Program-made: the position numbers and the translations under genes | Assembly: GCA_946540235.1 (NCBI GenBank) | Contig: CAMNID010000044.1 | Coordinates: 89,389 to 153,388 of the forward strand | Source of the DNA: an uncultured Lachnospiraceae bacterium | Lineage (GTDB): Bacteria > Bacillota > Clostridia > Lachnospirales > Lachnospiraceae | DNA: 64,000 nucleotides | Direction of reading: 5' to 3' | The notes under the pieces: model-generated | The model's input: only the letters and a program-made list of their open reading frames with translations | What the model was told of the DNA's origin: nothing | Database searches by the model: none | In this document: one piece after another, positions 43,077-59,651 of the stretch | Position numbering within the stretch: position 1 is the first letter of the stretch | How the letters are laid out: each line of letters opens with the position of its first letter

Positions 43077-43532
43077 TCAAAATAAACGGTCTGTAATCAG
43101 GGATGCATCCAGGAGAATATTGTTAAAAGACCTAGATAATTCAAGGTTATCCATGGATTCTGCCTCCATATCAAGATAAGTGACTAATTGAATAATCATC
43201 TCATTTCTCCTTCGTTTAAACAGGCCTTTTCTTTCGGCTTCCTTCTCTTCGGGCCGGCTGCACAGAAGACCGCTGCCCATCAGGTCTCCTTGGCCGGTAA
43301 AGAAATAGATCCTGGTCCCCGGCTCCGGGTCTCCCTTGACCAGTTGGCCCCGGAGCAAGAGCTTTCTCTCCTGCCGGTCCTCCTCCAGCCCTTCCTCCAG
43401 ATAGAATAAAAAGTCCGCCTGTTCATGGATATCCATGACCTTCCTCTTCCAGGGCTCCATATTCTCCTCCTGGTTCTGCCGGTAGGCCTCCATGGTCCTC
43501 TCATGTAATTTTCTCAATCCAGCAAACGGCAT
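43077..43532 (-). CDS. Hypothetical protein, possible EF-Tu domain-II-like beta-barrel; last gene of the accessory locus
   Basis: FLFYLEEGLE...LLLRGQLVKGDPEPGTRI resembles the F.VEDVF...VTGRVE.G.I..GD pattern; overlaps the upstream gene. Confidence 0.55.
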   Translation of the reverse strand: MPFAGLRKLHERTMEAYRQNQEENMEPWKRKVMDIHEQADFLFYLEEGLEEDRQERKLLLRGQLVKGDPEPGTRIYFFTGQGDLMGSGLLCSRPEEKEAERKGLFKRRRNEMIIQLVTYLDMEAESMDNLELSRSFNNILLDASLITDRLF

Positions 43533-44713: not shown

Positions 44714-45408
44714 ATTCCTATGGACACTCCCTTCAGAAGATCCTTCAAAGGTTTGACAACATTATCCAAAAGGTCTGTACTGACCGGCTGCAGCAGTTTT
44801 TCAATGGAAATAAACATGGGGGACGCTTCTTCGTCATAGCCCCCGTCTTCCCTGACGAAACAAAAGCGGAAATCCTCCTGGCTCAGCTCATCAGTAGTAA
44901 AGAACACAGCTTGGCCTAAAGGAAAGTCCAGATACTCTTCGTAATCATTGCTGCCGTAGGCATCAGAAAATACAAAGACTGCCTTATTCCTGCCCGGGGA
45001 AGGGAACTTGGCCACAGACAAGGCTATGGCATGGTGGACAGACTCCCGGCCGTCATTGGAACCACCGTAGAGCTTGATGGCCCTGACCTGCTGCATGAAC
45101 TCGGTCACATCCTCTGTAAAGGACTCCCCGTCAGCAAAAAGCAACTGGTCCGTCTCCTCTCCTCCCTTCTCGTCCCGGATGACGGTAGCGCCCAGCATGG
45201 GGTGAATCTCATAGCGGGCCAGGCTTTCTATAAAATGCATGATTGCAAAATAGACGGCAGGGAATATGGTGTACATGGAGGCAGTGCCATCGATGACAAA
45301 GTCCAGGTAAAGCTTGAGTCCCTGCTTCTTCTCGCTTTCCATCTTCTCCCGCAGTCTTCCGGGCAGAGACGGATTATAATCGGTCCCCTGACTGTTATAG
45401 CTGTTCAT
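44710..45408 (-). CDS. vWA-domain protein
   Basis: MIDAS-like LDFVIDGTASM, GGSNDGRE and VFVFSDA motifs. Confidence 0.8.
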   Translation of the reverse strand: MNSYNSQGTDYNPSLPGRLREKMESEKKQGLKLYLDFVIDGTASMYTIFPAVYFAIMHFIESLARYEIHPMLGATVIRDEKGGEETDQLLFADGESFTEDVTEFMQQVRAIKLYGGSNDGRESVHHAIALSVAKFPSPGRNKAVFVFSDAYGSNDYEEYLDFPLGQAVFFTTDELSQEDFRFCFVREDGGYDEEASPMFISIEKLLQPVSTDLLDNVVKPLKDLLKGVSIGI

Positions 45409-46634
45409 TATCTCCTGTCCCTCCCCCTGATCTGCAGTACTTCTATCTCTGTGTCATGATAAAGAAATTTATCCCCTTCCGTGACCTGGCTGTCCCTCTG
45501 CAGGCTGACAGCCCTGCAGTCTTCATGGAGCAGAAGAACCCTTACCTGGTCATCCACCCGGTAAAAGGACAGAATATGGCCGCTGTAGGGCCCGTTCTTA
45601 CTTCTTTCCTGCCTGGTTCCGTAATAAATAGGGACAAAACGATAGTTGCGGATATAGGGACTGTACTTGATATCCCCCACCCTGTAAGTCAGACGGATGG
45701 TGTCCCTCTGGGACTCTGATTCCAGCTGCTCCGGAAAATCAGGCAGACGGCCTTCCTGTTCCAGGTAAGTCTCCATGTCCCTTATAACCGGCTCGATACT
45801 GTGGTAACGGTCCTGCTCAGGGGCAATCATTTTGGCCAGGATTCCTGTCAGGGCCGGATCAATACCCGGCATATCCTTGAGGGTGTAGGCATAGTCCGGG
45901 TCCTCCATATAGCGGTTGATCTCCTCTGCTCCAAAGAAATGGTGCTTGCCTGTATAAATAAAATAAAGGACCAGGCCCGCAGAATAGATATCCATCTCCG
46001 GCCGGCATACATAGGAATTCCAGTAGCCCGGGTCCGCATAGCCCGGCGTCCCCTTCTGCTCCCTGCGCAGATTGCAGGTCAGCACGGAATCATGGAGGTG
46101 AACCCAGTCAAAATCTATGATTTTTACGACAGACCCATCCCGGGCCGCCATAACATTCTCTGGTTTTAAATCCCTGTGAATAATGGGATCGTTCTCATAG
46201 CAGGACATATAATGACGGATACCGTAGAGAAACTTCATGGCGATCCGGTCACAGATCCTCAGTTTCTCCTGCCAGGTCTCCCCGGTGGTCTCTCTCCGCC
46301 TCATCAGATCCGAGAGATCAGGGACATCAATATATTCCACCAGGGTAATAAAACGGCGGCCTTCCACATCCAGCATACCTCCGTATATCCTGACGATATA
46401 AGGGGAATAAAGCTGAACCTTACTCTCCTTTTCCACGAAAAGCCGGTCCATGTCCTCGCAGAAGAGAATCTTGAGAAAATACCTTCTTCCGGTCCGGATA
46501 TCCTCAGCTACCATGGCCTGCTTGGTTCCCGAACGGTAATTCTCCCTGACCATCTTCAGGACCAGGCCCTCCCCAGGGAAGTCTCCTTCTCCCTTCCAGG
46601 TGAGAAAATCCCCTTCCTTAAAATACTGATACAT
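45408..46634 (-). CDS. Soluble Ser/Thr protein kinase with a C-terminal beta-domain (possibly degenerate FHA)
   Basis: YFLK, IIHRDLKPEN, IIDFD, GTPGYADP and DIYSAG motifs; no TM or PASTA domain. Confidence 0.9.
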   Translation of the reverse strand: MYQYFKEGDFLTWKGEGDFPGEGLVLKMVRENYRSGTKQAMVAEDIRTGRRYFLKILFCEDMDRLFVEKESKVQLYSPYIVRIYGGMLDVEGRRFITLVEYIDVPDLSDLMRRRETTGETWQEKLRICDRIAMKFLYGIRHYMSCYENDPIIHRDLKPENVMAARDGSVVKIIDFDWVHLHDSVLTCNLRREQKGTPGYADPGYWNSYVCRPEMDIYSAGLVLYFIYTGKHHFFGAEEINRYMEDPDYAYTLKDMPGIDPALTGILAKMIAPEQDRYHSIEPVIRDMETYLEQEGRLPDFPEQLESESQRDTIRLTYRVGDIKYSPYIRNYRFVPIYYGTRQERSKNGPYSGHILSFYRVDDQVRVLLLHEDCRAVSLQRDSQVTEGDKFLYHDTEIEVLQIRGRDRR

Positions 46635-46637
46635 AGT

Positions 46638-47606
46638 TTACTCCCCTTTGGTCCGTCCCCTGCCCCTTTGCAGTTTGGAGCGGAAACGCCTCAGCACAGA
46701 AGCCTGCTCCAGCTTCACATAGGCACAGTCATCCTCCAGACCCTGCAGTTCTTCCGGCTCCTTGTCTTTAGCCTCCCGGATCATATTCTCTTCATTGGTC
46801 TCGCGGTAAAGTCTTTCCGCAGACACATCCCGGACCGGCCGGTCATTCTTTTCCCGGACATAGAGGATGGCGGTCTGGTTATCCTCTTCTCCCCGCTCTC
46901 TGGCTTTATGAAAGAGCTGGAGCAGCCTGCGGGATTCTTTTCCCTCACTGGCCGCCTTACGGATCTCCTCCCTGTCCAGGTCAGAAAAAGCCCCGTCAGA
47001 TCCCATCAGAACCCAGTCCACCTTCTTGTCAGGTAAAAAGGAAACGGAAGGGCTGCATCCATTCCTTCCCCCCAGGTAGGATAAAATCCTGTTTTTAGTC
47101 TGGTAATAAAGGATGGAGCCCTTTTCCGTCTTGCCGGAACGGATCAGGCTCTCAGCCACATTCTGCACCTCACTGACCAGGCTGATTCTCCTGCCCTCTC
47201 CTACATAGATGGGACTGTCCCCGCAATTACTGAAGATAAAGATATCCCAGAAAGATATGACCGTGGACAGGGTTGTCCCTCCACGGTAGCCCCGGTCAAG
47301 TCCTGCCTTATAAATCTCCGGCTCCAGCTCTTCATAGACCTGGCCGGAAAAATCCTTTAAAAGTTCAATCTGGGTATCCAGAGCCTTGCCGCAGAAATCC
47401 GGGTCTGTCACCCTCCGGTAGAGCTTCTCAAACCATAATCTGACGGCCAGCTCTGAGAAGAAAGCGCCGCCGGCCATGCCGCCCATACCGTCTGCCACAG
47501 CCATGGCCCTGACTGTGGAATCATAGTTGACCCGGATCTCCATCTGCCGGCAGTAGTCCTGGTTCTCGGATCGTCTGTTGATATCGCTCAACATATAACA
47601 TGTCAT
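46638..47606 (-). CDS. PP2C-family protein phosphatase
   Basis: RSENQD, VADGMGG, GTT, NCGDS, GSDG and DN motifs; the metal ligands are present. Confidence 0.92.
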   Translation of the reverse strand: MTCYMLSDINRRSENQDYCRQMEIRVNYDSTVRAMAVADGMGGMAGGAFFSELAVRLWFEKLYRRVTDPDFCGKALDTQIELLKDFSGQVYEELEPEIYKAGLDRGYRGGTTLSTVISFWDIFIFSNCGDSPIYVGEGRRISLVSEVQNVAESLIRSGKTEKGSILYYQTKNRILSYLGGRNGCSPSVSFLPDKKVDWVLMGSDGAFSDLDREEIRKAASEGKESRRLLQLFHKARERGEEDNQTAILYVREKNDRPVRDVSAERLYRETNEENMIREAKDKEPEELQGLEDDCAYVKLEQASVLRRFRSKLQRGRGRTKGE

Positions 47607-47660
47607 AATTTCCGCACCTCCAGGTAAGGATCATCCTGCTCCCGGGGCTTCCCGCCCCGG

Positions 47661-47690
47661 TTGCAAATTAATTACCCATATGATACACTG
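47661..47690 (+). promoter_or_regulatory. Putative promoter for the opposite-strand kinase gene
   Basis: TTGCAA-18 bp-TACACT with an extended-10 TG at 47682-83, just after the CCGGGGC/GCCCCGG hairpin (47642-60). Confidence 0.45.
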
Positions 47691-47722
47691 ATTCACATAA
47701 AAAATCTACTGACGAGGTTTTC

Positions 47723-48448
47723 ATGTTTTTACAAGAACTGACGGCAGAAAGCCTGCTGCGCCGCAAGAAAGACCTGCGGATCTACCGGGCTCCCGGCCAT
47801 AAGAACAACTGCATATGGAAATGCTGCTCCATGTCCCGGAAAGACATGGTGGAAGCCTTCCGGGACGAGTTTGAGACCATGTCTTTGGTGGAACATCCTT
47901 CTGTCCCGGCTTATTTTGGTCACTGGGACAACTGTGTCATCGGGGACTCGGACCAGCTCTGGTCTGTCCTCTGCATGGAAGAGTGTCCCGGATTCCCCTT
48001 AAAGGACCTGGTCCCCCATATGTCCAACCGGCTTATGCTCCGTATCTTAATGGAAACCGGCCGGCTTCTTTCCTTCCTGCTCGGGGAAGGCCTGGTCTAC
48101 ACGGACCTGAACCTGACCAACCTTCTTCTGGACTCTCAGGAAAAGGGCAGCCGGCTCTATCTGGTGGACTACACCTGCAGCTATTACTTCCTGCGGAACC
48201 CCAATCCCTCCTACTCTCTTTGTTTTTCCTACGATCTGTCTCCTGATCTTAAGGGCCAGCAGCTTCTGGTCCAGGAGCTGGCCTGTCTCTTTGAGGATAT
48301 GATCAGGGCCAGGGGGGACGAAAAAAAGGACAGCCGGATGCCTTCTTCCGTGCTGCCCCTCTACGAGACAGGAAAGAATCCTTCTCCCTCCCTGTCTCTC
48401 CAGGACTATATCTGCCAGATTGGTCACTGCCTCAACAGCCAGGAATAG
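47723..48448 (+). CDS. Atypical protein-kinase-fold protein on the opposite strand
   Basis: IWK (beta3 Lys), EFETMSLVEHPSVP, LCMEECPG, VYTDLNLTNLLL (HRDLKPEN-like, Asp and Asn kept) and LVDY; overlaps the PBP 3' end by 25 nt. Confidence 0.8.
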   Translation: MFLQELTAESLLRRKKDLRIYRAPGHKNNCIWKCCSMSRKDMVEAFRDEFETMSLVEHPSVPAYFGHWDNCVIGDSDQLWSVLCMEECPGFPLKDLVPHMSNRLMLRILMETGRLLSFLLGEGLVYTDLNLTNLLLDSQEKGSRLYLVDYTCSYYFLRNPNPSYSLCFSYDLSPDLKGQQLLVQELACLFEDMIRARGDEKKDSRMPSSVLPLYETGKNPSPSLSLQDYICQIGHCLNSQE

Positions 48449-49791
48449 AGTTCCTCTATGACAGGTGCCATACTTTTGCCAATCTTATCCGTTTTCAGCC
48501 GGCAGGCCACCACCACATATCTGGGGTCATCTGCCGGGGCGAAACTGACCATCCAGGCATTGTTGGTCCCGTCACCCCGCTGGGCAGTCCCGGTCTTGGC
48601 CGCAATCCGGTACTCTTTCTCACCAATCAGCGATAATTCATAGGCCTCCCCGGCCTTTGTCATTACATCTTTCAGCCGGTAGGCTATCATCTCGCTCATG
48701 GTCCGGCCCAGAAGCCGGGTCTGGCCTGTGTAGGTATCCTTTCCCTTTCCATTTGTTTTTTTCAAAATCATATAAGGCTCAAGCATCTCTCCGTCATTAG
48801 CCACACTCTGGGTGATCATGGCCATATGAAGAGGAGTAAGCATGGTCTCCCCCTGGCCGAAAGCCGTGGAAGCCAGAACATTGTCCTCTCCGCTTCCCAG
48901 ACTGAAGGAAGACCGGAGCATCGTGAAATCAAGCGGGATATCCTGACCCAGCAGAAAGCGCTTTGCCGTAGCTTCCAGGCTCTCTCCCCCCAGCTTGACT
49001 GCCCGGTCCATAAAGTAGACATTGGAGGACTTGATAAAAGCATCCTCAAAGGAGATCCGGCCGTAGGCCTTGCCGTTATAATTCCGTATGGTCTGGCCAT
49101 TGACCTTGTAGGATCCCTGGTCATCCACCTCCTCATCCTCTATGCCCGCCTCCAGGATCTCTGTGGAGGTAACCAGCTTAAAGACCGATCCCGGCACAAC
49201 CGGATTCTTGTAGGCGTTGGCCAGGAGGGCTCCTTCCGTGGCATTTATTATATCCCAGTCCTCTTCCAGCCTGCCGGCATCGTAGGACGGGGATGAAGCC
49301 AGGGCAAGGATCTGCCCGGTTTTGACGTCCAGGACCACCAGGCTGGCTTCCATTTTCCTGATGGCCTTGTAAGCCTTTTTCTGAAGGTCCAGATCAAGAG
49401 TCAGACTGATATCAGTCCCCCTCTTATTCTCCGTCAGAGAGGAACTGTGAACCAGTTCATCATTAAAAGTATCCTCCAGGCCATAAGTCCCGTAGATTTT
49501 GGACCAGTAACCTATGACCCCGGCAAAGGACCGGGGAGCCGTATAAGTCCTGGTCCCTCCTGCTTTATCTGAGAAAGCCAGGACATTCCCATTCCGGTCC
49601 AGGATACTCCCTCTTACGTATTCCTTTTCATAGGAGGCATTCCTGGCAGCTTTCTTTTTCTGGTCTGCTTCCTTTGACACCCCAGGCAGGACCGCAGAAA
49701 TCCGGACCAGGCTTACAATCATTAAAATGACACAAACCAGGGAAATGCTCTGCAGCAGCTGGGCCCTTTTAAGTAATGACATTTTCTTCAT
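48424..49791 (-). CDS. Class B penicillin-binding transpeptidase (PbpA-like)
   Basis: N-terminal TM, RGSILDRNG, PGSVFK (SxxK), SSN (SxN) and KTGT motifs, all intact. Confidence 0.92.
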   Translation of the reverse strand: MKKMSLLKRAQLLQSISLVCVILMIVSLVRISAVLPGVSKEADQKKKAARNASYEKEYVRGSILDRNGNVLAFSDKAGGTRTYTAPRSFAGVIGYWSKIYGTYGLEDTFNDELVHSSSLTENKRGTDISLTLDLDLQKKAYKAIRKMEASLVVLDVKTGQILALASSPSYDAGRLEEDWDIINATEGALLANAYKNPVVPGSVFKLVTSTEILEAGIEDEEVDDQGSYKVNGQTIRNYNGKAYGRISFEDAFIKSSNVYFMDRAVKLGGESLEATAKRFLLGQDIPLDFTMLRSSFSLGSGEDNVLASTAFGQGETMLTPLHMAMITQSVANDGEMLEPYMILKKTNGKGKDTYTGQTRLLGRTMSEMIAYRLKDVMTKAGEAYELSLIGEKEYRIAAKTGTAQRGDGTNNAWMVSFAPADDPRYVVVACRLKTDKIGKSMAPVIEELYSWLLRQ

Positions 49792-51173
49792 TCTTCCATC
49801 CCGCCTTTCCAGGGGATATTACCCGAGACGGCAATAATCAAAGCCGTCATGATAAAGCATACCAGAAGGGAGCTTCCTCCGCTGGATATGAAAGGAAGAG
49901 TAATTCCGGTCAAAGGACAGAGACCGGTGCTGCCGGCAATGATGATTAGGGCCTGGTAGAAGACCAGGGTTCCGAAGCCGGCAGCGATAATCTGATGGTA
50001 TCTCTGCTTTTTTCTGATAAATACCTTCATCTCCTCTAACCAGAGGAGATTAAAGACGATGAAAATCAAGAGGGCAAAAACCAGACCGCAGCGCTCAATC
50101 AGGGCCGGATAGACCAGGTCACTGCTTTTTACAGGCAGGTCCGTCACAGAGGAAGTGCCGAAAAAACCACCCAGCAAAATAGACTCCTTGGCCTTGAGCA
50201 GCTGGTAGCCCAGCCCGGCCGGGTCCTTTTCCGGATTGAGCCAGTAGATAAAACGGTTACTTATCTTTGAATAGGCATCCAGATAAAAGCGGACCAGGGC
50301 TCCTGTCCTGGCTCCGGATCCATCCAGCTGCATCTGGGTCAGCTTTCTTCCTATGGCAGCCAGTATGCCTCCCCCTGCCGTCAGGGCAAGAACCACCCCC
50401 AGCAGCCAGGAAAGGTCTGACACAAACAGGAGGTGGAGGGACAAAAAGACCAGCAGCAAAAGGAGCAGGGTCCCAAACTCCCCCTGAACCGCCAGCAGCA
50501 GCAGGGACAGAAAAGTATAGCCGTAAAAGAAGGCCAGGGTCCTCCTGTCCGTCTCCCGGTCCCGGCCAAGGATATAGGCACAGACCGGTATATATAATAA
50601 TTTGCTGATTTCCGTTGTCTGCAGGGAAATCCCTGCCAGGCTGATCCAGTTCTTCACGCCGCCTACCCCTTCTGAAAAGACCAGAGTCAGGAGAGACAGG
50701 CCCACGGCAAGGGCTGCCATCAGGACAGCCGTCTTCTTCCTGGCAATGAAGTCTGTGCAAAAATAAACAATACCTGCAGCCAGGGCCGCAGCCAGACTGA
50801 CCAGATACTGCAGTTCCAGGGAGGCTATACCAGTCCGGGCCGGATCCCTGGTCCCGGTTCTGATTACCAGTTCCTCAATGAAGATACACTGGAGCATGGT
50901 TCCCACCGTCAGCAGAATCAGACTGTAGACCAGGACCTTCCTGTTGCCGTGGGCAACTGAGGTAAAGAGCCAGCCGGCCAGACTGATGAGCAAAAGCAGG
51001 GGCAGCAGATTCAGATAAATCCTGCCAGCTCCCTTTGCCCCCATAAAAAGGAGGGCTGCGATCTGCATCAGGATCACAGCCATAAGAGGTCCGGTCCAGA
51101 AGGAATAAAAGGCTCTGTGTATCTCCCACCGGATCCGGGTCATGCTAATAGTATGTTCTTGTTTTTCCCTCAT
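49788..51173 (-). CDS. FtsW/RodA/SpoVE (SEDS) peptidoglycan glycosyltransferase
   Basis: Multi-TM; KNWISLAGISLQTTEISK, GYQ, LPVKSSDL (catalytic Asp position) and PLTGITLPFISSGGSS motifs. Confidence 0.9.
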   Translation of the reverse strand: MREKQEHTISMTRIRWEIHRAFYSFWTGPLMAVILMQIAALLFMGAKGAGRIYLNLLPLLLLISLAGWLFTSVAHGNRKVLVYSLILLTVGTMLQCIFIEELVIRTGTRDPARTGIASLELQYLVSLAAALAAGIVYFCTDFIARKKTAVLMAALAVGLSLLTLVFSEGVGGVKNWISLAGISLQTTEISKLLYIPVCAYILGRDRETDRRTLAFFYGYTFLSLLLLAVQGEFGTLLLLLLVFLSLHLLFVSDLSWLLGVVLALTAGGGILAAIGRKLTQMQLDGSGARTGALVRFYLDAYSKISNRFIYWLNPEKDPAGLGYQLLKAKESILLGGFFGTSSVTDLPVKSSDLVYPALIERCGLVFALLIFIVFNLLWLEEMKVFIRKKQRYHQIIAAGFGTLVFYQALIIIAGSTGLCPLTGITLPFISSGGSSLLVCFIMTALIIAVSGNIPWKGGMEE

Positions 51174-51841
51174 CTTTTCATCTCCACCAGCATTTCTATG
51201 TTTCCAATGAAAAAACGCACTCCTGCCTCCAGGGGCAGCTGGTCATGCAGCTTACCGCCGGAAAATATCTTATTCTTGGTTCCCAGGTCCACAGCCACAT
51301 ACCTGTCCCCGGATCTTTCTATGGACACATGCTTTCTGGAAACACACAGGTCATCAAGAACCAGGTCATTATCATTGCTCCTGCCAATGCGGAAGGGAAT
51401 ATGGTCTACGGGGATGCGTCTGAGAATCCGCTTGTTTTCATCGAGCTCCAGCAAAAGCAAAGCGGGCCGGGACTCTTTCTGGTCCGGGAACCGGCGGGGC
51501 TGCTTCTGGCTGCCGGGATCTGCCTTTTGGTCCCGGACCGGGCCAGGCTGCTTTTGCCTGCCATCCCCTTCTTTCTTCCCCCGGCCCCGGTAGTCAGCTT
51601 CAAAAGCTGCCTGCTCCTGCCGGGCTTCTTCCATTTTCTTAAGTTCTTCTTCCCGGGCCTTTCTCAAGCGCCGCTTTTCTTCCAGTTTCTCTTCCCGCTC
51701 GGCCCATTCATCGACGAAATGCTCTCCCTCCTCCTGGGCTCTTGCCAGGTCATTATTGGCCCGGAAGAGAATAAAGATGATAAAAGCAATCAGAAGAATC
51801 ACGGCCGCCGCCGAAAGCAGGGTCATCCATTCAACAGCCAT
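51170..51841 (-). CDS. Membrane-anchored FHA-domain protein (FhaB-like)
   Basis: N-terminal TM, charged coil, and FRIGRS...VSRKH...DLGTKN pThr-binding motifs. Confidence 0.9.
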   Translation of the reverse strand: MAVEWMTLLSAAAVILLIAFIIFILFRANNDLARAQEEGEHFVDEWAEREEKLEEKRRLRKAREEELKKMEEARQEQAAFEADYRGRGKKEGDGRQKQPGPVRDQKADPGSQKQPRRFPDQKESRPALLLLELDENKRILRRIPVDHIPFRIGRSNDNDLVLDDLCVSRKHVSIERSGDRYVAVDLGTKNKIFSGGKLHDQLPLEAGVRFFIGNIEMLVEMKR

Positions 51842-53387
51842 GCAGTGAAATCACCCCATTCATAAGATCTGTTAAGGTAACTTGTTTTTTCTCTTCCTCG
51901 TTCCAGACCTTGACCAGCTGATCCATAAACAGGTCGCCGGTAAGGCCCTGTCTGTCCAGCTCCTCCTTCATCTGGTCCAGCATATCCTCCCATTTATCCC
52001 TGATAAAGCAATGGCCCGTCCACAGGGAAAAAAGCAGGGTGCTGTAAAAATACACATCATTGAACTGGAAATTATTGGATAGTCTTCCCGGTTTTCTCTC
52101 AAAACAGTAATCCTCAAACTTCTCCAGCTCTAAGGCGTCAGCCTCCTTGTTTTTATCAACGCAGAGTATGGGCAGGGAATCAAAGGCAGGAATATCTGCC
52201 AGGCCGGTCACCTGCTGGCTGCAGGCCACCGCGTTGTTGCGGAAGGATATACTCTTTTTACACCGGTTCACTTCCTCAAAGAGCACCCGGTCTACCACCG
52301 TATACCTGCAGTAACCATGTTTTTCATAGCCGTAATCATGGTCCTTGCGGCAGGCCCGGAGCTGGGCTCCCAGGCAGAGGGAAAACCAGCGTTTCTGACT
52401 GACGGAAAGCTCATAGGCCGCATGGTATTTCCTGCAGATATCCTCATCCATCTCATAGCCCTTTTTCCGCAGGCTGCCGGCAGCTGACTCGATCATCTGC
52501 CAGATCTGCTGGCTGTTGGCCGCCGAGTCAGACTTGTATTTGGCCACCATCTCTATGATGACCTCTGCGGGCGTTATGCCAAGAGGCTCCATCTGGGCCT
52601 TGGCCAGCAGCTTCTCAATAGACTCATAGGAGGGCTGGAGGGCTATCATAAAACGTAGCAGCCAGTCTCTGGTCACCACCGCCTTGCCGGCCTTGATCTT
52701 GGAGAACTGGGCCTCATAATGACCCAGTCCGATATCCCGGAGAAACCAGGATGCCTTGTCATAATAACCATATTCCTCCTCGATCACCTCAGCCAGGCAC
52801 TGGCCGAACTGGCGGTTGCCTGCCCGGAATTCCTCCCGGTAGGACCGGATCAGCTGGAAGAAATCTTCCAGGCTGCCCGCCTCTGACAGCAGAATCCAGA
52901 GGTCTGTAGTGGCCAGACTTCTGGCCTCATCCTCAGACTCCTCCGCAAGGATCTGCTCCACCTGACCCCGGATCTGGTCCATGCGGGAAATGTCAAAAAG
53001 GCCGTTAATGAGGGCAATCCAGAGGGCATCATCGATATTTTTGCAGTAGAGCCCATAGCCCATATAGGTCTCCAGGAGGACATGGTTGATCTCCTCGAGG
53101 GACATCTGAAAGGCCAGACCCAGGGTGACATAGATATCCCTGGAGGAGGGCAGGGCCCCCCGCAGCCAGGTCCCTATGGCCTGCCTTGTCACAGGCTGGT
53201 AGGGATTGCCCTGGTCTTTCCGTTTCTCAGACCTGTGATATACTTTTTTAGCCAGAGCCGTATTACTGTAATCAAATACATCCATTTTCTCTTCAAGAAA
53301 ACGGGCAAAAGGAATCTTGTTCTTCTGCCCCCTGGCCAGGGCTTCTTCAATCTGTCCGAGAAAATCTTCTGAATTATTCCAAATCAT
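51831..53387 (-). CDS. Putative DNA-binding protein with two Cro/C1-like HTH repeats
   Basis: VTRQAIGTWLRGALPSSRDIYVTLGLAFQMSLEEINHVL and AQFSKIKAGKAVVTRDWLLRFMIALQPSYESIEKLL. Confidence 0.6.
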   Translation of the reverse strand: MIWNNSEDFLGQIEEALARGQKNKIPFARFLEEKMDVFDYSNTALAKKVYHRSEKRKDQGNPYQPVTRQAIGTWLRGALPSSRDIYVTLGLAFQMSLEEINHVLLETYMGYGLYCKNIDDALWIALINGLFDISRMDQIRGQVEQILAEESEDEARSLATTDLWILLSEAGSLEDFFQLIRSYREEFRAGNRQFGQCLAEVIEEEYGYYDKASWFLRDIGLGHYEAQFSKIKAGKAVVTRDWLLRFMIALQPSYESIEKLLAKAQMEPLGITPAEVIIEMVAKYKSDSAANSQQIWQMIESAAGSLRKKGYEMDEDICRKYHAAYELSVSQKRWFSLCLGAQLRACRKDHDYGYEKHGYCRYTVVDRVLFEEVNRCKKSISFRNNAVACSQQVTGLADIPAFDSLPILCVDKNKEADALELEKFEDYCFERKPGRLSNNFQFNDVYFYSTLLFSLWTGHCFIRDKWEDMLDQMKEELDRQGLTGDLFMDQLVKVWNEEEKKQVTLTDLMNGVISLHGC

Positions 53388-53390
53388 TAC

Positions 53391-55418
53391 TTATCTATCC
53401 TTTCTGACGATCCGGAAGATCGTAATCAGCTGTGACAGCAGTGTCATTATACCCATAAACAGGAAAAAGAAAAGGCGGATTTTCTGGGAGGGCAGCAACC
53501 AGGCCGCCTGGGAGACGACAAATCCTTCCACCAGATTAAGACCAAGGACCATCCAGACAGGGAAGGTCTGGTTCTTCTCCAGAAGTTCCCGCTGGTAATT
53601 CGCCATAAGGATGGTCCATACTCCCGCCATACCGAGGGCGATCTTCCAATGACCGATCTTGATGGAGTAGAGGGAGAGAAACATCATACAGGCTGTCAGA
53701 AAGCCCTGGGGCAGGCTGCCCAGCAGAAAGGTCAGATAATGTTCCGCCTCCTGGTCTGTCTCCTCTTTGCTGAGACTCCTGGTCACAGCCACTAAACTGG
53801 CCCCTTTTCCTGCCTTCTCCATAGCCGGCCTTTCCTCCGGATCTGTTCTCCCGGTCATCTGCTCCTCTTTTCCGGTCTCCGCCATGGTCCTGCCGGCCCC
53901 GGCCTCTTCTTTCCTTTCGTCCATTTCACTGACTCCCGTTTTTTCAAAACTCTTTTCTTTCCCGGCCCCCAAATCTTCCCTTCCGCGCCGGTCCTCATCC
54001 AAAGGCCTTCCGGCCGGTCCTGTCTGACTTTGGTCCTTCCTTTCACTTGCAGCCAGGTCAGGCCGCCCTGGCCTCTCCAGGGCCAGAATCCAGGGATGGT
54101 CCTCCACAGAAGCAGAACTCTGTTCTTCCCCGGCCGGGTCTGTCAGGGCTCTGTAAATCTCCTTATGGCCCTTCTGCAGCTCCTTAAGTTCCTGTTGGCC
54201 TGCACCGGGATCCAGGGCCTTGATCATGTCCATAACCCTGGTCATCTCCGGCAGCATATCCTCCCGGGTCCGGCTGGTCATCCCGCCGGTCAGGTCTTTA
54301 AAATATCCGCGTAATTCCACCAGGGACAGCCGCAGCCCCCTCACCTGGCCCATGACAAATTGCAGCAGAGAGGCATCAATAAGACCGCCTGCCTTCCAGT
54401 AACACAGCTGGGGTACCGCATGGATCAGAATCTCATCCGGCAGCCGGTCTCCTCCCTCTTTGCAAAAATACTCATAGAAAATCCATGGCAGGGCAGCCAT
54501 GAAATCGGCAGAGGACTCCATCCTGTCATCGGTCATTTTTTCATCGACCAGACTGATAAAACGATCGTAGGCCTCATCCTCATGGTGGTCAAGCAATTCC
54601 GCCAGATGGAAACACATGTACCGCCAGGGACTGTCCCAGTCCCCCTCTCCGGAAGTAAATGACCGGCCAGCACCGGCCGGGGCGGTCCTTCCTTCTCCGC
54701 CTTCCCGGCTGCCAGGCAGGAAAAAGGCCCGTTCCAGGCCCTCATCCGTCTTTCCCGCCGGCCTGAAGTAGAAGGGGACATTGTCCCTGCCTGTCCTGGA
54801 AAAGGACAGGTAGCCGGCATACTGTCTGGCCTTCCTGGGCAGGAGCAGGTGGACTGCCAGCATAAGCTCCGCTCCCCGGATCCCATATTGGTCTTCCTCC
54901 CAGCCCCTGACGGCAAAACACCCGGCTTTGTTCTGGCCGATACAGGAAAATACCAGATCGAGGAAATCAGCCAGGGACCGGCCCTGCAGCTGGTATCTGC
55001 CAAGAAGCTCCTCCCGGCCAAGTCCCAGAGGCTTTACTTCCAGGGGAGCCAGACCCTTTCCCAGAGAATGGGGCCACTGGCTGTGGGGTGCCAGGTAAAC
55101 TTCCGGTCCACACTCTTTGTCCAGGCAATGGTACAGTCTTACCCGGACATTTTTCCTATGGTCTTTCCCCGGCCGGGCCGGCTCTGAAACCATTTTGACA
55201 AAACCAAGGCTCCCCTCGTACATTAACTCCTCAACGGGGACCCTTCCCCTGCTGTCCACACAGGCAGAAGCTGCCAGCTTCTCGAGCCGGTTCAGCAGGT
55301 CCCGGTCACCGGTTCTGGAAGAAGCCTTGATCCCCCAGCCTACCGGACTGCCTCCTATACCCTGGTCGGACCAGGTATACTCATGGCAGTCGAACTGGTA
55401 TGTCTGTGCTTCTCTCAT
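53391..55418 (-). CDS. GTPase-associated protein (GAP1-N2-like N-terminus) with C-terminal multi-TM anchor
   Basis: N-terminal EYTWSDQGIGGSPVGWGIKASS resembles the GAP1-N2 start as recalled. ATGA-coupled to the GTPase gene; acidic linker; about four C-terminal TMs. Confidence 0.55.
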   Translation of the reverse strand: MREAQTYQFDCHEYTWSDQGIGGSPVGWGIKASSRTGDRDLLNRLEKLAASACVDSRGRVPVEELMYEGSLGFVKMVSEPARPGKDHRKNVRVRLYHCLDKECGPEVYLAPHSQWPHSLGKGLAPLEVKPLGLGREELLGRYQLQGRSLADFLDLVFSCIGQNKAGCFAVRGWEEDQYGIRGAELMLAVHLLLPRKARQYAGYLSFSRTGRDNVPFYFRPAGKTDEGLERAFFLPGSREGGEGRTAPAGAGRSFTSGEGDWDSPWRYMCFHLAELLDHHEDEAYDRFISLVDEKMTDDRMESSADFMAALPWIFYEYFCKEGGDRLPDEILIHAVPQLCYWKAGGLIDASLLQFVMGQVRGLRLSLVELRGYFKDLTGGMTSRTREDMLPEMTRVMDMIKALDPGAGQQELKELQKGHKEIYRALTDPAGEEQSSASVEDHPWILALERPGRPDLAASERKDQSQTGPAGRPLDEDRRGREDLGAGKEKSFEKTGVSEMDERKEEAGAGRTMAETGKEEQMTGRTDPEERPAMEKAGKGASLVAVTRSLSKEETDQEAEHYLTFLLGSLPQGFLTACMMFLSLYSIKIGHWKIALGMAGVWTILMANYQRELLEKNQTFPVWMVLGLNLVEGFVVSQAAWLLPSQKIRLFFFLFMGIMTLLSQLITIFRIVRKDR

Positions 55419-56860
55419 TGAAGCCACCCTCTTTCCTGCATGTACTTCATGAGGATCCACATGAAGGGCTCCTCAACCCGGATCGGCCGCACTTTGCCTA
55501 CGGCCCGTATAAGCTGCTGGTCTCCGGAAGTCTGCTCCTCTGTCTCACAACCCAGGGCCGAGACTGCAAAGAGACTGGCAGCCTTATAATCGTTAAGCTT
55601 TCTCTGAAGCCGGAATACTTTCTGGTCAAAAATCTTGCGCAAAACCTGCTGTCTCAGGAAATGTCTGTCCATATCCATGAAACCGCAGGCCACCTGGCCT
55701 CTTTCAAATAGCAGGCTGCTGCCCTTGTATTCCAGGATTTCTCCCAGACCTTCCAGCAGGTCGCTTTTCCCTATGGTCAGGGCTATATATTTCTCTGACA
55801 GCAGCTTCTCCCCCAGGGTGGACCTGAGGGCATCGAGAACTGTATCAATCTTACGTTCATAAAAAAATTCATCCCTGGACGTCTGCTCCAGCAGATAATC
55901 CGATCCTCCAAAAACCTGTTTTTCGTTCTCATTGCTCAGCCTCTGGATGGACATCTGCTCCTCGAGGGTCATCAGATGGAGCCGGCGGAGCACCTGGTCT
56001 TCATCAGGCATCTGCCTGCTGAACAGGGCATGATTGAGATGCATCTGGGCCGGGTCCACCAGACAGATAAAGCCATCCATATGACGGACAAAACCCGTCC
56101 GGCCCATGCCCGTACTCTCCCTGATCAACTCGCCGGCCACATCATAGACGGCGACCAGCAGGAATATGGATGAGTCAGGCAGCCGGTAATTCAATTCCAT
56201 AAAAACCGGTTTACGGAAAATCTTGCTTGTGCCTGCCGGACATATACCATCCACAAAAAGCCTGTCCGCATTTTTTTCCATCTCCAGCCGCTCCGGGTCG
56301 GATGGATTGCCGGCGGCGCTCCTCACGGTCAGATTATCCCGCTGCATGACATCGTAATCATTCATCATGAGAGAGCACAGATAAACGGTCTTCCCGGAGG
56401 CCACACTGCCTGCCAGTCCCACCATGAGCATCTCATAGCGGAAAAAATTCTGGGGCAGTTCATTGTGACAATAGGGGCAGACCATGGTGTTGGAAAAGAG
56501 GGTGACGGCTCCCTCCTCGACAAGGAAGGTATAGCCGCAGCTGGCCTCGTCATACTGCTTTCTGGCCAGATCAGCCCCAGAGGAACTGAGCTCCTGGTTG
56601 AGGACTGTCAGGGCCTGGTTGTCAATAATACACCTCCGCCCGTCTATGCGGTCCTCCGGCACCCCCATGGCATTCCAGAAATAGATGTAGGGAAGGTCGG
56701 GCCTGACCGCAGCGAACTCATTGAGGGCCGGCGACTGGAAACGGGCCCCCTCAGTCTTCAGTAGAAATCCTACCTGGCTGTTGGAGACTTCCCGGAAGCA
56801 ATATGGACATTTTCTTTTAATATTACGAATTTTTGTCTCCTGCATCAAAGCCTCCGTCAC
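55415..56860 (-). CDS. TRAFAC-class GTPase with split Zn ribbon (double-GTPase-2-like)
   Basis: CPYC...CPYC; G1 GSVASGKT, G2-like GT, G3 DVAG, G4 GKSD, G5 SAL. Confidence 0.85.
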   Translation of the reverse strand: MTEALMQETKIRNIKRKCPYCFREVSNSQVGFLLKTEGARFQSPALNEFAAVRPDLPYIYFWNAMGVPEDRIDGRRCIIDNQALTVLNQELSSSGADLARKQYDEASCGYTFLVEEGAVTLFSNTMVCPYCHNELPQNFFRYEMLMVGLAGSVASGKTVYLCSLMMNDYDVMQRDNLTVRSAAGNPSDPERLEMEKNADRLFVDGICPAGTSKIFRKPVFMELNYRLPDSSIFLLVAVYDVAGELIRESTGMGRTGFVRHMDGFICLVDPAQMHLNHALFSRQMPDEDQVLRRLHLMTLEEQMSIQRLSNENEKQVFGGSDYLLEQTSRDEFFYERKIDTVLDALRSTLGEKLLSEKYIALTIGKSDLLEGLGEILEYKGSSLLFERGQVACGFMDMDRHFLRQQVLRKIFDQKVFRLQRKLNDYKAASLFAVSALGCETEEQTSGDQQLIRAVGKVRPIRVEEPFMWILMKYMQERGWLQ

Positions 56861-57432
56861 ATCCCCATAAATGCCCTCACTGAAATCTCATGCTTGGATT
56901 CCAGGATAATATAGTAAAGAATATCCTTCCGCAGCACTGCCTCATAAAGGATGGCACCCTGGTCCCTGCCCAGGCCGGCCTCCCTGATTTCAAAGGGGGC
57001 CTTGGCCGACCGGATCAGAATCTCATCCGGATAGTCTGTGGCACAGAAAAGAATGTCCTGGTCTTCTATAAAATAAGTGAAGTCCTTGCCGGAGGGATGT
57101 CTTCCAAACATGAGTATCCGGTCCAGAGGAAGACTGCCCTTTCTGAACCTGCCATCATTGAGAACAGCCGAGCAGCCGCCGAAGGCCGCCCCGTGGGTGA
57201 TCAGAAGATCCATCCTGAAAACCCTCCGGCTCTGAATCCTTTCTTCCTCCATCTTCTGGCGATGGACTCTCTCCCGCTCCCTGCGCTCCTCACCGGCAAG
57301 CTGGAGGGCCTGGCCGTACAGGTGGCTGGACCTCATCCCGCGGGACTGACTGATCACATAATAAATATATCCATATAAGGTCAGCAGGCTGGCTGCCGCC
57401 AGGCTGACCTGTGTCATAATCATCCATCCCAT
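56857..57432 (-). CDS. Membrane-anchored protein, TM-coil-degenerate FHA-like; first gene of the accessory locus
   Basis: N-terminal TM, ERRERER coil and ILMFGRHP; same layout as 51170-51841. GAGGAG RBS. Confidence 0.55.
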   Translation of the reverse strand: MGWMIMTQVSLAAASLLTLYGYIYYVISQSRGMRSSHLYGQALQLAGEERRERERVHRQKMEEERIQSRRVFRMDLLITHGAAFGGCSAVLNDGRFRKGSLPLDRILMFGRHPSGKDFTYFIEDQDILFCATDYPDEILIRSAKAPFEIREAGLGRDQGAILYEAVLRKDILYYIILESKHEISVRAFMGM

Positions 57433-57558: not shown

Positions 57559-57587
57559 ATACTACTGGTCCCGGTCCCGGGTGTCAA
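57559..57587 (-). promoter_or_regulatory. SigA-type promoter for the accessory locus
   Basis: Minus strand TTGACA-17 bp-TAGTAT. Confidence 0.7.
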
Positions 57588-57617: not shown

Positions 57618-58556
57618 CTAGCGGTCCTGCCGCCACAGGTAGTCAGGGTAAATGCTTCCCTTCATAGCCGTAATGGCTTCCGTCACGGAGGCCTTATCCT
57701 CCGGATAGGTCACACCAAACCACTTATCATCGGTCTCAAGAACCTCTACCACTGCCCGGTCTTCATTGAGGAGATCTTCTACCACACTGGGCAGAAAATA
57801 CTCACATTTGACAGGGTTTTCGGCAAAACCTTTTTCAAGAAAAGCGGGAAACTTTTCTTCCAGGGCGTCTAAAAAACTCCGGGAAAAGCCCCAGCAGTTC
57901 ATGGAAACCGGGGTACCGTCAGGAATGACAGTCCAGCTGGCCCCGTCATCCAGGGTATAGGCGGCTTCCCCATTGACCTTTTCAATCCGGGTACGCTCCA
58001 CAATCTCTGTCAGCCGGGACTCTTCATCAGTCTGGCAGACACCCCGGGACACATATCCGTTCTCTGTGACCGTATTTTCAATATGAAAACCAACCATGCA
58101 GTAGCGGTATTTCTCATCGTCCTGGTGGCTGGTCAGATAATCATAAAGAAGGGAAAATGCCTCCACTCCATAATAATCATCGGCATTGATGACCGCAAAG
58201 GGGCCGTCAACCAGATCTTTACAGCACAGAACCGCATGACCTGTCCCGTAAGGTTTCTGCCGGCCTTCAGGAATCTCAAAGCCTTCCGGCAGACAGTCAA
58301 GCTCCTGAAAGGCGTAAGCTACCTCCATGCTGCCTGCCATCTCCCTGCCGATTTTCTCCACAAATTCCTTCTCAATGGCATGCTTGATAATAAAAACCAC
58401 TTTTTTAAAGCCCGCCCTCTTAGCGTCGTAAACGCTGAAATCCAGAATAACGTGCCCCTGCTCATCCACCGGGTCCAGCTGCTTTAAACCGCCATAACGA
58501 CTCCCCATTCCCGCTGCCAGCACCAGCAGGGCCGGTTCTTTTCCATTTTTATTCAT
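57618..58556 (-). CDS. Sugar-phosphate nucleotidyltransferase
   Basis: LVLAAGMGSRYGGLKQ, KPYGTGHA, INADDYYG, SMNCWGF and WFGVTY motifs. Confidence 0.88.
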   Translation of the reverse strand: MNKNGKEPALLVLAAGMGSRYGGLKQLDPVDEQGHVILDFSVYDAKRAGFKKVVFIIKHAIEKEFVEKIGREMAGSMEVAYAFQELDCLPEGFEIPEGRQKPYGTGHAVLCCKDLVDGPFAVINADDYYGVEAFSLLYDYLTSHQDDEKYRYCMVGFHIENTVTENGYVSRGVCQTDEESRLTEIVERTRIEKVNGEAAYTLDDGASWTVIPDGTPVSMNCWGFSRSFLDALEEKFPAFLEKGFAENPVKCEYFLPSVVEDLLNEDRAVVEVLETDDKWFGVTYPEDKASVTEAITAMKGSIYPDYLWRQDR

Positions 58557-58817
58557 ATCTTGTCACTCACTTTCTTTTCCTCCTAAGAGGCCTTATCACA
58601 TTCATAAATGTATTTTCCCATATCACGGACAAAACATCAAGGGACTGTTGGGTCCTGGTCTGACATAAATTTTTTAATAATTCATTATTTATTTATAAAT
58701 ATTTATAGATTATTTATTTTTTTCTTAGGATAAATCCAAATTTTTATTATTATTTTGTTGTCTAAAAGTAAAAATACCTTTATAATAGAAGGAGAAATGT
58801 GGAGAGGGGAAAAGCAT

Positions 58818-59651
58818 ATGAAACAACTTCGATATACCATTCAGCAATATAATTTATTTTCTAAGACGCAGATTAAGTTGTCTCATGCCAACCTCTATCA
58901 CTGCGAAGACAATAATTACGACATTTTCCCAGGATACCCATATTCTAAGCTTCTCTATGTTCTTAACGGGTCCGGACAGTTTATCTGTGATGGTACCTGT
59001 GTTCCTGTAAAAGAAAAAGATTTTATCATCACCAACCCCCACAAACACCGTTTTTCCATAGAAGTTGACCATGACTCTCTTGACTTTGTCATCCTGGGTA
59101 TTGAAAACCTGAATTTTATTATTGATGACGAACCTATGAGAGAGGCCATCCGGGGAGTAAGTCTCGACAGTCCTGTTGCCGATGCTCTGATGACTTATCT
59201 GATTCAGGAGATCCAGGAACAGAAAAAAGAGTATGAGGCTATATGTAACTATTATCTGAATGTTATTCTGATTGAACTGCACCGCCATACCAACATTTTC
59301 TGCAATATATCCACCAAGGAAAAGAAGGCCAGGGATTGCCGTTTTGTCAGGGATTATCTGGACAAACATTTCCGGGAAAATATCACTCTTGATCTTCTCT
59401 CTGAAAAGAGCAGCATGAATAAGTATTATCTCGTTCATTCCTTTACAAAGAATTTCGGATGTTCACCCATCAATTACCTGAATGAAAAAAGAATTGAAGA
59501 GAGCAAAAGGCTTTTAGAGACCACCAATTACTCCATTGCGGAGATTGCAGACCAGATTGGTTTTTCTTCCCAATCTTACTTCTCCCAGTCCTTTAAGAAA
59601 AATACTTATATGACACCTAATGAGTACCGCCGGTCTACCCGGCTCCTGTAA
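58818..59651 (+). CDS. AraC-family transcriptional regulator
   Basis: Cupin N-domain; NITLDLL...NKYYLVHSF...RIEESKRLL...FSSQSYFSQSFKK. Start may instead be 58797. Confidence 0.92.
   Translation: MKQLRYTIQQYNLFSKTQIKLSHANLYHCEDNNYDIFPGYPYSKLLYVLNGSGQFICDGTCVPVKEKDFIITNPHKHRFSIEVDHDSLDFVILGIENLNFIIDDEPMREAIRGVSLDSPVADALMTYLIQEIQEQKKEYEAICNYYLNVILIELHRHTNIFCNISTKEKKARDCRFVRDYLDKHFRENITLDLLSEKSSMNKYYLVHSFTKNFGCSPINYLNEKRIEESKRLLETTNYSIAEIADQIGFSSQSYFSQSFKKNTYMTPNEYRRSTRLL

Follow-up and report, generated by a model that had tools for sequence, protein, structure and literature searches.

The DO-GTPases and their GAP1 partner proteins are known from one comparative-genomics study (Kaur, Burroughs, Iyer and Aravind, eLife 2020, PMC7159879), which defines the GTPases as TRAFAC proteins that conserve a glutamate in Walker B and often have one or two zinc ribbons at the N-terminus. 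According to that study, the GTPase of the GAP1-N2 systems carries two N-terminal zinc ribbons, membrane-anchored GAP1 proteins are frequent, and a second paralogous GTPase is found in 38% of the systems. A third theme, which accounts for 10% of cases and is said to be restricted to actinobacteria, adds a PP2C phosphatase, a stand-alone vWA protein and an active kinase to which a beta-rich domain is often fused. RodA, FtsW, penicillin-binding proteins, FHA in such a context, longin and DENN are not mentioned in the study, and later papers merely cite the DO-GTPase/GAP1 family. Here we describe a GTPase gene and its partner gene at positions 53391-56860, on the minus strand, of a 64,000-nucleotide stretch of DNA from an uncultured Lachnospiraceae bacterium (assembly GCA_946540235.1, contig CAMNID010000044.1; this whole stretch is called the window). 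The GTPase belongs to the DO-GTPase2 family, and profile comparisons identify the partner as a divergent GAP1. We hold it to be somewhat probable that the pair is a membrane GTPase switch that controls the peptidoglycan synthase encoded in its own operon, rather than a device for toxin delivery. Membrane anchoring of GAP1 was known already; what is unusual here is the operon context, with a wall synthase and a signaling set.

The GTPase and its partner protein

The two genes and the parts of the partner protein are located in the window as follows (aa, amino acids; pLDDT, predicted local distance difference test score; AF2, AlphaFold2).

55415-56860, minus strand: DO-GTPase2-like TRAFAC GTPase; motif coordinates checked, invariant columns in common with canonical DO-GTPase2
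55415-55418, minus strand: ATGA, in which the GTPase stop overlaps the partner start and couples the two genes; read directly
53391-55418, minus strand: partner gene, 675 aa, the open reading frame directly downstream of the GTPase
55017-55418, minus strand: partner aa 1-134, GAP1-N2-like, beta-rich (hhalign and AF2), in the order beta-beta-alpha-beta-beta-beta-alpha
54711-55016, minus strand: partner aa 135-236, GAP1-M-like alpha/beta domain (same hhalign alignment)
54129-54629, minus strand: partner aa 264-430, all-helical domain in the GAP1-C position (AF2, pLDDT mostly >90)
53760-54128, minus strand: partner aa 431-553, disordered Glu-rich acidic linker (pLDDT <50)
53391-53759, minus strand: partner aa 554-675 and stop, four predicted transmembrane (TM) helices (AF2 helices)

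The GTPase is 481 aa long from a GTG start; the database orthologues start five codons later, at Met6, which gives 476 aa. A first-pass annotation, made from the sequence alone, had proposed a TRAFAC GTPase with all G motifs, and these motifs are indeed found on the minus strand where it had placed them: G1 as GSVASGKT (aa 151-158, 56387-56410), G2 as Thr211 within PAGTSK, G3 as DVAGE (aa 240-244, 56129-56143), G4 as GKSD (aa 364-367, 55760-55771), an xKxD variant of NKxD, and G5 as SAL (aa 434-436, 55553-55561). The two CPYC zinc knuckles, at aa 18-21 (56798-56809) and aa 128-131 (56468-56479), are 110 residues apart and not about 90 as had been estimated.

It is evident from an alignment of 32 sequences, ranging from close orthologues (43-89% identity) to Pfam-positive DO-GTPase2/DO-GTPase1 proteins (22-27% identity), that the GTPase can be aligned with canonical DO-GTPase2 proteins from end to end. 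Invariant columns are located in the knuckle region (C18, P19, C21, C128, C131, H132 and N133), in the P-loop (G151, G156, K157 and T158) and further downstream (D240, G243, E244, D269, D367, S434 and R461), and K365, A435 and L436 are kept in at least 90% of the sequences. Because they are invariant across an alignment that reaches canonical DO-GTPase2, the motifs are not chance matches. The Walker-B Glu (DxxGE), the defining feature of DO-GTPases, is present in DVAGE, where E244 is invariant, and the two CPxC knuckles correspond to the N-terminal zinc ribbons, one or two in number, that DO-GTPases associated with GAP1-N2 typically have. Since C18, C21, C128 and C131 are the only invariant Cys residues, the two distant knuckles fit one putative zinc site that brackets an inserted subdomain of ~105 residues, rather than two complete ribbons. 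These results show that the protein is a divergent TRAFAC GTPase of the DO-GTPase2 family with a putative four-Cys zinc site from two CPxC knuckles. The identification of the GTPase made at first pass thus stands on the end-to-end alignment and the Walker-B Glu, although the protein, with 18.8 bits (E 1.4e-3), lies below the Pfam gathering threshold of 27 for PF19993. A precomputed PF19993 match exists for many orthologues at 43-62% identity. No second paralogous GTPase was found in the operon, and the genome has no other convincing PF19993 match.

The AF2 model of the GTPase is confident, with a pLDDT of 81.9 and a predicted template-modeling score (pTM) of 0.81, and its top Foldseek matches in the PDB, which are to YcjX (E 6e-6), atlastin and Ras/Rab, confirm the GTPase fold. 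Searches of the PDB by sequence and profile gave only sub-threshold P-loop matches for both proteins, and no match of the GTPase profile to solved structures went past E 0.1. Compared with canonical members, the GTPase has a clade-specific insertion of ~40-45 residues between the VDPxQ strand and G4, which is poorly modeled.

The partner gene lies directly 3' of the GTPase gene in all orthologous loci, and an overlapping or abutting start is found in most of them; the ATGA overlap noted at first pass was read directly in the window. The partner itself has no match among Pfam, NCBIfam and PADLOC models. Nor did Pfam match any of the 13 partner homologues when run on each separately, and PF20013, searched against the whole genome, has no match at the partner even at E 10. 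Profile-profile comparison gave a different picture from the curated models. When the partner family was aligned by hhalign with canonical GAP1 proteins from tubulin-type and two-GTPase loci (8 templates, later 13), probabilities of 97.0%, 97.1% and 98.2% were obtained (E 1.2e-10, 6.7e-11 and 3.9e-14). The alignment runs from query 9-237 against template 2-255 (E 3.9e-14 with 13 templates). Pfam places GAP1-N2 at 1-139 and GAP1-M (PF20014) at 153-253 of the Mesobacillus template, so the span covers both GAP1-N2 and GAP1-M. Identity within the alignment is 18%. Controls gave 0.1% probability for the reversed sequence and at most 0.3% for unrelated operon proteins.

A similar result was reached by database retrieval. 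When 1.84 billion representatives were searched with a hidden Markov model (HMM) built from partner aa 1-440, 122 proteins passed E <=1e-3. Among the 56 distant proteins retrieved, GAP1-N2 is matched by six (best E 5e-24) and GAP1-M by one; these are the sole Pfam families that are seen more than once or are related to GTPase systems, the other two matches being single and marginal. Furthermore, the partner orthologue in a second Lachnospiraceae clade (locus L030) matches PF20013 directly at its N-terminus (E 0.02), and an N-terminal motif is visible by eye, HEYTWS...GWGI.ASS in the partner and QQMYTRE...GFDTVAKS in canonical GAP1. These comparisons show, at the level of profiles, a divergent GAP1 in which GAP1-N2 and GAP1-M are followed by a helical domain, an acidic linker and a predicted four-helix membrane domain. 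The membership holds for a divergent subfamily only, because the ordinary family models fail on both the partner and the GTPase. The silence of the curated models and an identity of merely 18% might be taken to mean that the partner is unrelated to GAP1, its profile match a compositional or fold-level coincidence, and the GTPase an orphan P-loop protein. We consider this very improbable: profile-profile alignment and the retrieval of Pfam-positive GAP1-N2 proteins are independent routes that concur with clean controls, the second-clade orthologue is matched by PF20013 itself, and a GTPase gene followed by a GAP1 gene is the hallmark order of the family. The GAP1-N2-like character claimed by the first-pass annotation was therefore retained at the profile level (hhalign 97-98%, E 1e-10 to 4e-14, and profile retrieval), though PF20013 and the other family models find nothing. 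A GAP1-family match for 53391-55418, the absence of which had been named as grounds for dropping the idea, was found by profile methods.

The AF2 model of the partner, built on 27 homologues, has a mean pLDDT of 76.8. The N, M and helical domains are mostly above 85, with a short disordered loop before the helical domain, and aa 430-556 are disordered. Counted over aa 431-560 (130 residues), the acidic linker contains 23 Glu and has a net charge of -11. Four C-terminal helices are modeled at 554-588, 591-614, 621-640 and 645-674. Their Kyte-Doolittle means are 1.36, 0.47, 1.48 and 1.94, and the last one alone passes the strict threshold of 1.6. Thus, of the layout proposed at first pass, the globular N-terminal half and the acidic linker agree with the model and the composition, and the count of about four TM helices rests mainly on the AF2 model because only one helix passes strict hydropathy.

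The helical domain (aa 258-440) is not recognizable as GAP1-C (PF20052): compared by hhalign with the canonical post-M region and with a PF20052-positive GAP1 (locus L171), it reached 0.1-0.4% probability. The TM block likewise has no detectable homology to the TM tails of canonical GAP1 proteins. Within the genus Anaerobutyricum, identity is 42% in the TM block, as in the N2 domain (42%), and falls to 29% in M, 21% in the helical domain and 14% in the linker. In an alignment of 13 sequences, the polar residues G589, H590, K592, N607, R648 and Q663 of the TM block are invariant. Because the predicted four-helix membrane block is conserved like N2 and carries conserved His, Lys, Asn, Arg and Gln residues, it looks like a functional interface and not a passive anchor. 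The view that the membrane anchor is a special, variable GAP1 end did not survive, given this conservation and the earlier description of membrane-anchored GAP1 as frequent (Kaur et al. 2020). In most Anaerobutyricum species the linker stretch (53760-54128, minus strand) holds a conserved segment with the consensus GIxLLNxxLF ... QWxxIL ... TACYxE; in the subclade of the window this segment is swapped for a shorter low-complexity acidic linker.

Co-inheritance with a wall synthase and a signaling set

The pair sits in a 13-gene operon (43077-57432) in which most genes overlap or abut. The gene order is p191, GTPase, partner, p518, a TM protein with an FHA domain (TM-FHA), a SEDS glycosyltransferase, a class B penicillin-binding protein (bPBP), an atypical kinase on the opposite strand, a PP2C phosphatase, a Ser/Thr kinase, a vWA-like protein, p399 and p151. 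The genome samples below are draws, and "not found" applies to the genomes searched.

The partner is present in all 24 genomes searched of Anaerobutyricum, a genus of the gut and rumen, and a search of 16 other families of the order did not find it. The cultured type strain A. hallii DSM 3353 carries both the GTPase and the partner gene (locus L041). Human-gut metagenomes contain many copies, almost all of them close Anaerobutyricum ones. From p191 to the Ser/Thr kinase, ten genes follow one another in an identical order in six genus genomes and three contigs of the second Lachnospiraceae clade, whose GTPase is ~45% identical to that of the window; one genome of this clade (G556) has 12 of the 13 operon genes. 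In the six genus loci, every captured flank has a counterpart of the window's flanking genes, which are an NTP-transferase and an AraC-type regulator on one side and an aspartate aminotransferase or a Mur ligase on the other. The GC content of the operon is like that of its surroundings, and no mobile-element genes flank it. As judged from these genome comparisons, the operon is vertically inherited and not a roaming element, because the partner is present in every genus genome searched, the captured flanks are constant in the six genus loci, and the GC content matches.

When one genome from each of 201 Lachnospiraceae genera was surveyed, orthologues of the GTPase, of p518 and of the SEDS paralogue of the operon were found in the same two genomes only, which suggests that the whole operon acts as one evolutionary unit. 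By comparison, canonical GAP1-N2 is present in 6 of 401 genomes sampled across the phylum. Among 13 out-group DO-GTPase loci, 12 are of a tubulin/vWA type (22-33% GTPase identity) and one is of a two-GTPase type, and none has SEDS, PBP, FHA, kinase or PP2C genes. Between genomes, the partner shares 22-31% identity, compared with 44-68% for the GTPase, and is the fastest-evolving of the ten proteins from p191 to the kinase. Taken together, genome comparison shows that the pair is co-inherited with an accessory SEDS-bPBP and an FHA/kinase/PP2C/vWA set, and this appears to be the most informative feature of the locus.

These results suggest a scheme in which the N2 and M domains of the partner would dock the GTPase on the inner side of the membrane and control which nucleotide state it is in or, alternatively, read that state out. 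The membrane and helical domains may then couple the nucleotide state to the peptidoglycan polymerase and cross-linker of the operon, directly or via TM-FHA; the likeliest contacts of the membrane block would be SEDS, bPBP and TM-FHA, the other membrane proteins of the operon. The kinase and PP2C would write and erase phospho-threonine marks, which the FHA domain would read, so that GTP state and phosphorylation could jointly gate when and where the extra synthase works, for example in localized growth or envelope repair. Such a scheme would resemble the kinase-PP2C-vWA theme of the GAP1-N2 systems, with a cell-wall synthase as output instead of a variable toxin.

Several points weigh against a switch of this kind. 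Linkage in an operon does not by itself establish that the pair acts on the synthase, and we found no experimental work on any DO-GTPase or GAP1 protein, the literature being comparative genomics. The parent family has been interpreted as conflict systems (Kaur et al. 2020), and the partner evolves at a rate typical of conflict genes (22-31% identity between genomes, where the GTPase has 44-68%). Finally, the operon is rare in the family (2 of 201 genera), which suggests horizontal acquisition at some point.

Much of the same evidence can be read in favor of a conflict or defense system of the third GAP1-N2 theme. The pair would then sense an invader at the envelope once a threshold is passed, the kinase, PP2C and vWA protein would form a second checkpoint, and the SEDS-bPBP and FHA proteins would be a response arm acting through wall remodeling, blocked phage adsorption or injection, or suicidal mis-synthesis. 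The homology to a family predicted as conflict systems, including kinase, PP2C and stand-alone vWA, would be expected under such a reading, as would a fast-evolving partner with an almost unconserved linker, a distribution as patchy as two of 201 genera, and out-group relatives that are sporadic (the tubulin/vWA-type systems, and canonical GAP1-N2 in few genomes of the phylum). We nevertheless regard a defense role as possible but rather unlikely, for the following reasons. The loci compared share invariant gene content and order, and no toxin-like or variable effector gene is among them. Every genus genome searched has the partner, the six genus loci have the same neighbors, and mobile-element genes are absent from the flanks. 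No PADLOC model matched among the four proteins tested. The FNIII component that is said to typify GAP1-N2 systems was not found either: the 13 operon proteins gave no fn3-type match, mostly down to E 1-5, though a very divergent beta domain in p191, the kinase C-terminus or p151 is possible. The framing as a conflict system given at first pass therefore fits poorly, with the partner in 24 of 24 genus genomes, constant gene content and context, and no toxin-like effector.

Some GTPase systems classed as "conflict" systems may thus be regulators of cell-envelope growth, or may have given rise to such regulators. The pair described here comes without variable effectors, is fixed in a genus whose cultured type strain carries it, and is linked to a recognizable output, which makes its mechanism directly testable.

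The other genes of the operon

The remaining features of the operon are listed here in the order in which they follow one another from the promoter-like site.

57559-57587, minus strand: promoter-like site, TTGACA-17-TAGTAT, 10/12 (consensus scan only), in the 185-base-pair gap upstream of p191
56857-57432, minus strand: p191, with an N-terminal hydrophobic helix or TM, a charged coiled coil and a C-terminal beta-rich domain; position conserved
51831-53387, minus strand: p518, cytoplasmic, XRE/HTH_3-related over aa 64-290 by sequence similarity to HTH_3 proteins
51170-51841, minus strand: TM-FHA protein of FhaB/FipA-like architecture (PF00498, E 4e-12; TM at aa 1-33)
49788-51173, minus strand: accessory SEDS glycosyltransferase of the FtsW/RodA/SpoVE family (PF01098, E 4e-44)
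48424-49791, minus strand: class B PBP transpeptidase with a PbpA-type dimerization domain (PF00905, E 4e-50; PF21922, E 6e-11)
47723-48448, plus strand: atypical small kinase-fold protein (Pkinase, E 3.6e-7, below cut-off)
46638-47606, minus strand: PP2C phosphatase (PF13672, PP2C_2, E 6e-7)
45408-46634, minus strand: cytoplasmic Ser/Thr kinase with a beta-rich C-terminal domain (PF00069, E 8e-20; HRDLKPEN, DFD)
44710-45408, minus strand: stand-alone vWA-like protein (PF25106, VWA_4, E 1.8e-5, 24.8 bits against a cut-off of 27)
43514-44713, minus strand: p399, no Pfam match; kept in the second clade and in the four genus loci extending this far
43077-43532, minus strand: p151, no Pfam match; kept in the four genus loci that reach it

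The SEDS gene is the fourth and most divergent of the SEDS genes in the genome, the other three being more typical, and it can be considered an extra synthase for this reason. It keeps the Asp of the SDL motif, and the motifs SVFK, SSN and KTG can be read in the translation of bPBP; the SEDS-bPBP pair is apparently intact for catalysis. The sequence relatives of bPBP in the PDB include chains deposited as "Penicillin-binding protein A" (3un7 and 3lo7). The FHA domain of TM-FHA keeps GR, SRKH and N. The protein matches the FhaB model NF049868 (FhaB_Rv0019c) with E 4.5e-14 but at 52.8 bits, against a cut-off of 125.

The Ser/Thr kinase has no TM segment and no PASTA domain, and is the weakest of the four above-cut-off Pfam matches to kinase domains in the genome. 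In the atypical kinase, YTDLNLTN replaces HRDLKPxN, and the protein is probably inactive. Its gene lies on the opposite strand and converges on the PBP gene, overlapping the end of the latter by 25 nucleotides; all loci compared share this position and orientation, also those of the second clade, where identity is ~30%. The vWA-like gene is kept in the second clade as well as in the four genus loci that extend to it.

In each of the 10 loci compared, p191 immediately precedes the GTPase; it has no match in Pfam, NCBIfam or PADLOC. Its comparison with FHA by hhalign was marginal (26 columns of the FHA core, 55% probability). The coiled coil is Glu/Lys-rich, and the 110-aa beta domain carries the conserved motifs GKHPSGK(E/D)FTY and ILESKHEI. 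That p191 corresponds to the ~225-aa protein upstream of tubulin-type DO-GTPases was rejected, the hhalign probability being at most 0.8%.

p518 shares 26% identity (E 1.8e-13) with a 369-aa Lachnospiraceae protein that carries PF01381 and has an FHA gene after it. p518 itself has no match in Pfam, NCBIfam or PADLOC. Its orthologue co-occurs with the GTPase. A relationship of p518 to any neighbor in canonical DO-GTPase systems was rejected as well (hhalign probability at most 0.8%). In other Lachnospiraceae genera, kin of p518, XRE-type HTH proteins of 340-390 aa, are encoded directly upstream of FHA genes (e.g., locus L080, 1213-2863), and this HTH-FHA gene pairing occurs without any GTPase.

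The kinship of p518 with XRE-type HTH proteins bears on another reading, in which the pair, p191 and p518 would form a signaling unit with a transcriptional or other cytoplasmic output, and the SEDS-bPBP and phospho-signaling genes would merely share the operon. We consider this reading improbable. p518 itself matches no HTH model, and the SEDS paralogue is found in the same two of 201 genera as the GTPase and p518. The tight gene overlaps argue for one co-translated assembly, and the partner is predicted to be membrane-embedded, as are SEDS, the PBP and the FHA protein.

Outside but near the operon, a Mur ligase, a wall-related housekeeping gene, is located at 40141-41517 (minus strand). The GC content falls to 0.37-0.42 over 58000-59500, compared with ~0.52 elsewhere; this segment spans the AraC-family regulator gene just upstream of the operon. 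Two of the six genus loci keep this gene far less well (27-28% identity) than the others do (44-58%).

Fold likeness and comparison with known systems

The order beta-beta-alpha-beta-beta-beta-alpha is typical of longin domains, and the order of strands and helices in the modeled N-domain of the partner fits a longin or profilin-like fold. When the model was compared with the PDB by Foldseek, none of the matches reached E 1e-3 and TM-scores were at most 0.33. Folds of GTPase regulators nevertheless prevail among the top matches, which were DENND1A bound to Rab35, a DENN guanine nucleotide exchange factor (E 0.016, 453 columns), followed by TagF (E 0.046, 256 columns, probability 0.95). Folliculin, Lst4 and Lokiarchaeal longin domains are among the further sub-significant matches, and most of the rest are LOV/PAS domains. 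The likeness to DENN and TagF, drawn from a predicted structure, is suggestive. We tentatively propose, as an idea that is less likely to be right than the switch itself, that GAP1 proteins are prokaryotic longin-DENN-like modules, with a longin-like N2, a DENN-like M and a d-DENN-like helical domain, which would act as exchange factor or activating protein of the DO-GTPase; the partner here may in addition be TagF-like and touch FHA, so that cycles of GTPase activity and of threonine phosphorylation would meet at the dedicated SEDS-bPBP synthase. If this were true, the operon would encode a bacterial Rab/DENN-style membrane switch controlling wall synthesis, and the whole DO-GTPase/GAP1 family would gain a biochemical mechanism and a non-conflict function. 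A confirmed DENN/TagF-like GAP1 fold would, in addition, be relevant to the question of where in prokaryotes the eukaryotic regulators of GTPases have their roots.

Among the described systems, the third GAP1-N2 theme shares with the operon a zinc-knuckle GTPase with the Walker-B Glu, a GAP1 (N2 and M) encoded directly downstream, C-terminal TM helices on the GAP1, and, nearby, a kinase that ends in a beta-rich domain and appears active, as judged from motifs only, a PP2C and a vWA protein. It differs in several respects. Both proteins of the pair here are below Pfam thresholds, neither a detectable GAP1-C nor an FNIII-repeat protein accompanies them, and there is one GTPase. The host is a member of the Lachnospiraceae, in contrast to the actinobacteria of the published theme, and the system is not mobile or variable within the genus. 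The operon also adds SEDS, bPBP, TM-FHA, an HTH-related protein and an antisense atypical kinase, none of which is mentioned for that theme.

The nearest relatives of both the GTPase (22-33% identity) and the partner are found in the tubulin/vWA-type GAP1-N2 systems of Firmicutes, which represent the first theme. In two of these loci (L021 and L031), the GAP1 proteins likewise end in multi-TM regions. Unlike the operon, these systems have Tubulin_2 and vWA genes, they are without SEDS, PBP, FHA, kinase and PP2C in 12 of 12 loci, and they occur sporadically and are not fixed in a genus. The gene order in tubulin-type loci (L021, L022, L031 and L164-L170) is constant, namely vWA, Tubulin_2, a 620-790-aa protein, a 222-236-aa protein, GTPase and GAP1, and the GAP1 proteins of several of them are also missed by the Pfam GAP1-N2 model.

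TagF is a two-domain regulator (alpha+beta, then alpha/beta) that binds Fha in type VI secretion, a system under post-translational control by the PpkA kinase and the PppA PP2C (PMC5995506); a structure is available (9T0N; bioRxiv 10.64898/2025.12.08.692957). In the TagF system, as proposed for the operon, the activity of a membrane machine depends on a kinase, a PP2C and an FHA protein. The comparison is an analogy only: TagF has neither a GTPase partner nor a TM domain and shows no sequence similarity to the partner here, the fold match is not significant by E-value, and the output of the operon would be a wall synthase. YcjX (PDB 6NZ4-6NZ6), a stress GTPase that is a large TRAFAC protein with helical insertions, can be aligned with the GTPase model over ~410-430 columns (E 6e-6), at 10-12% identity and TM-scores of 0.23-0.28.

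A further comparison is offered by the actinobacterial growth and division cluster fhaA-fhaB-pstP-rodA-pbpA-pknA-pknB. To our knowledge, this cluster contains no GTPase-GAP1 pair, HTH protein or vWA protein. The kinase of the operon differs from those of the cluster in having neither TM nor PASTA, and TM-FHA stays below the cut-off of the FhaB model as given above. At the domain level only, the operon and the cluster are alike in combining an FhaB/FipA-like TM-FHA, a SEDS protein, a PbpA-type bPBP with PBP_dimer_2, a PP2C and Ser/Thr kinases.

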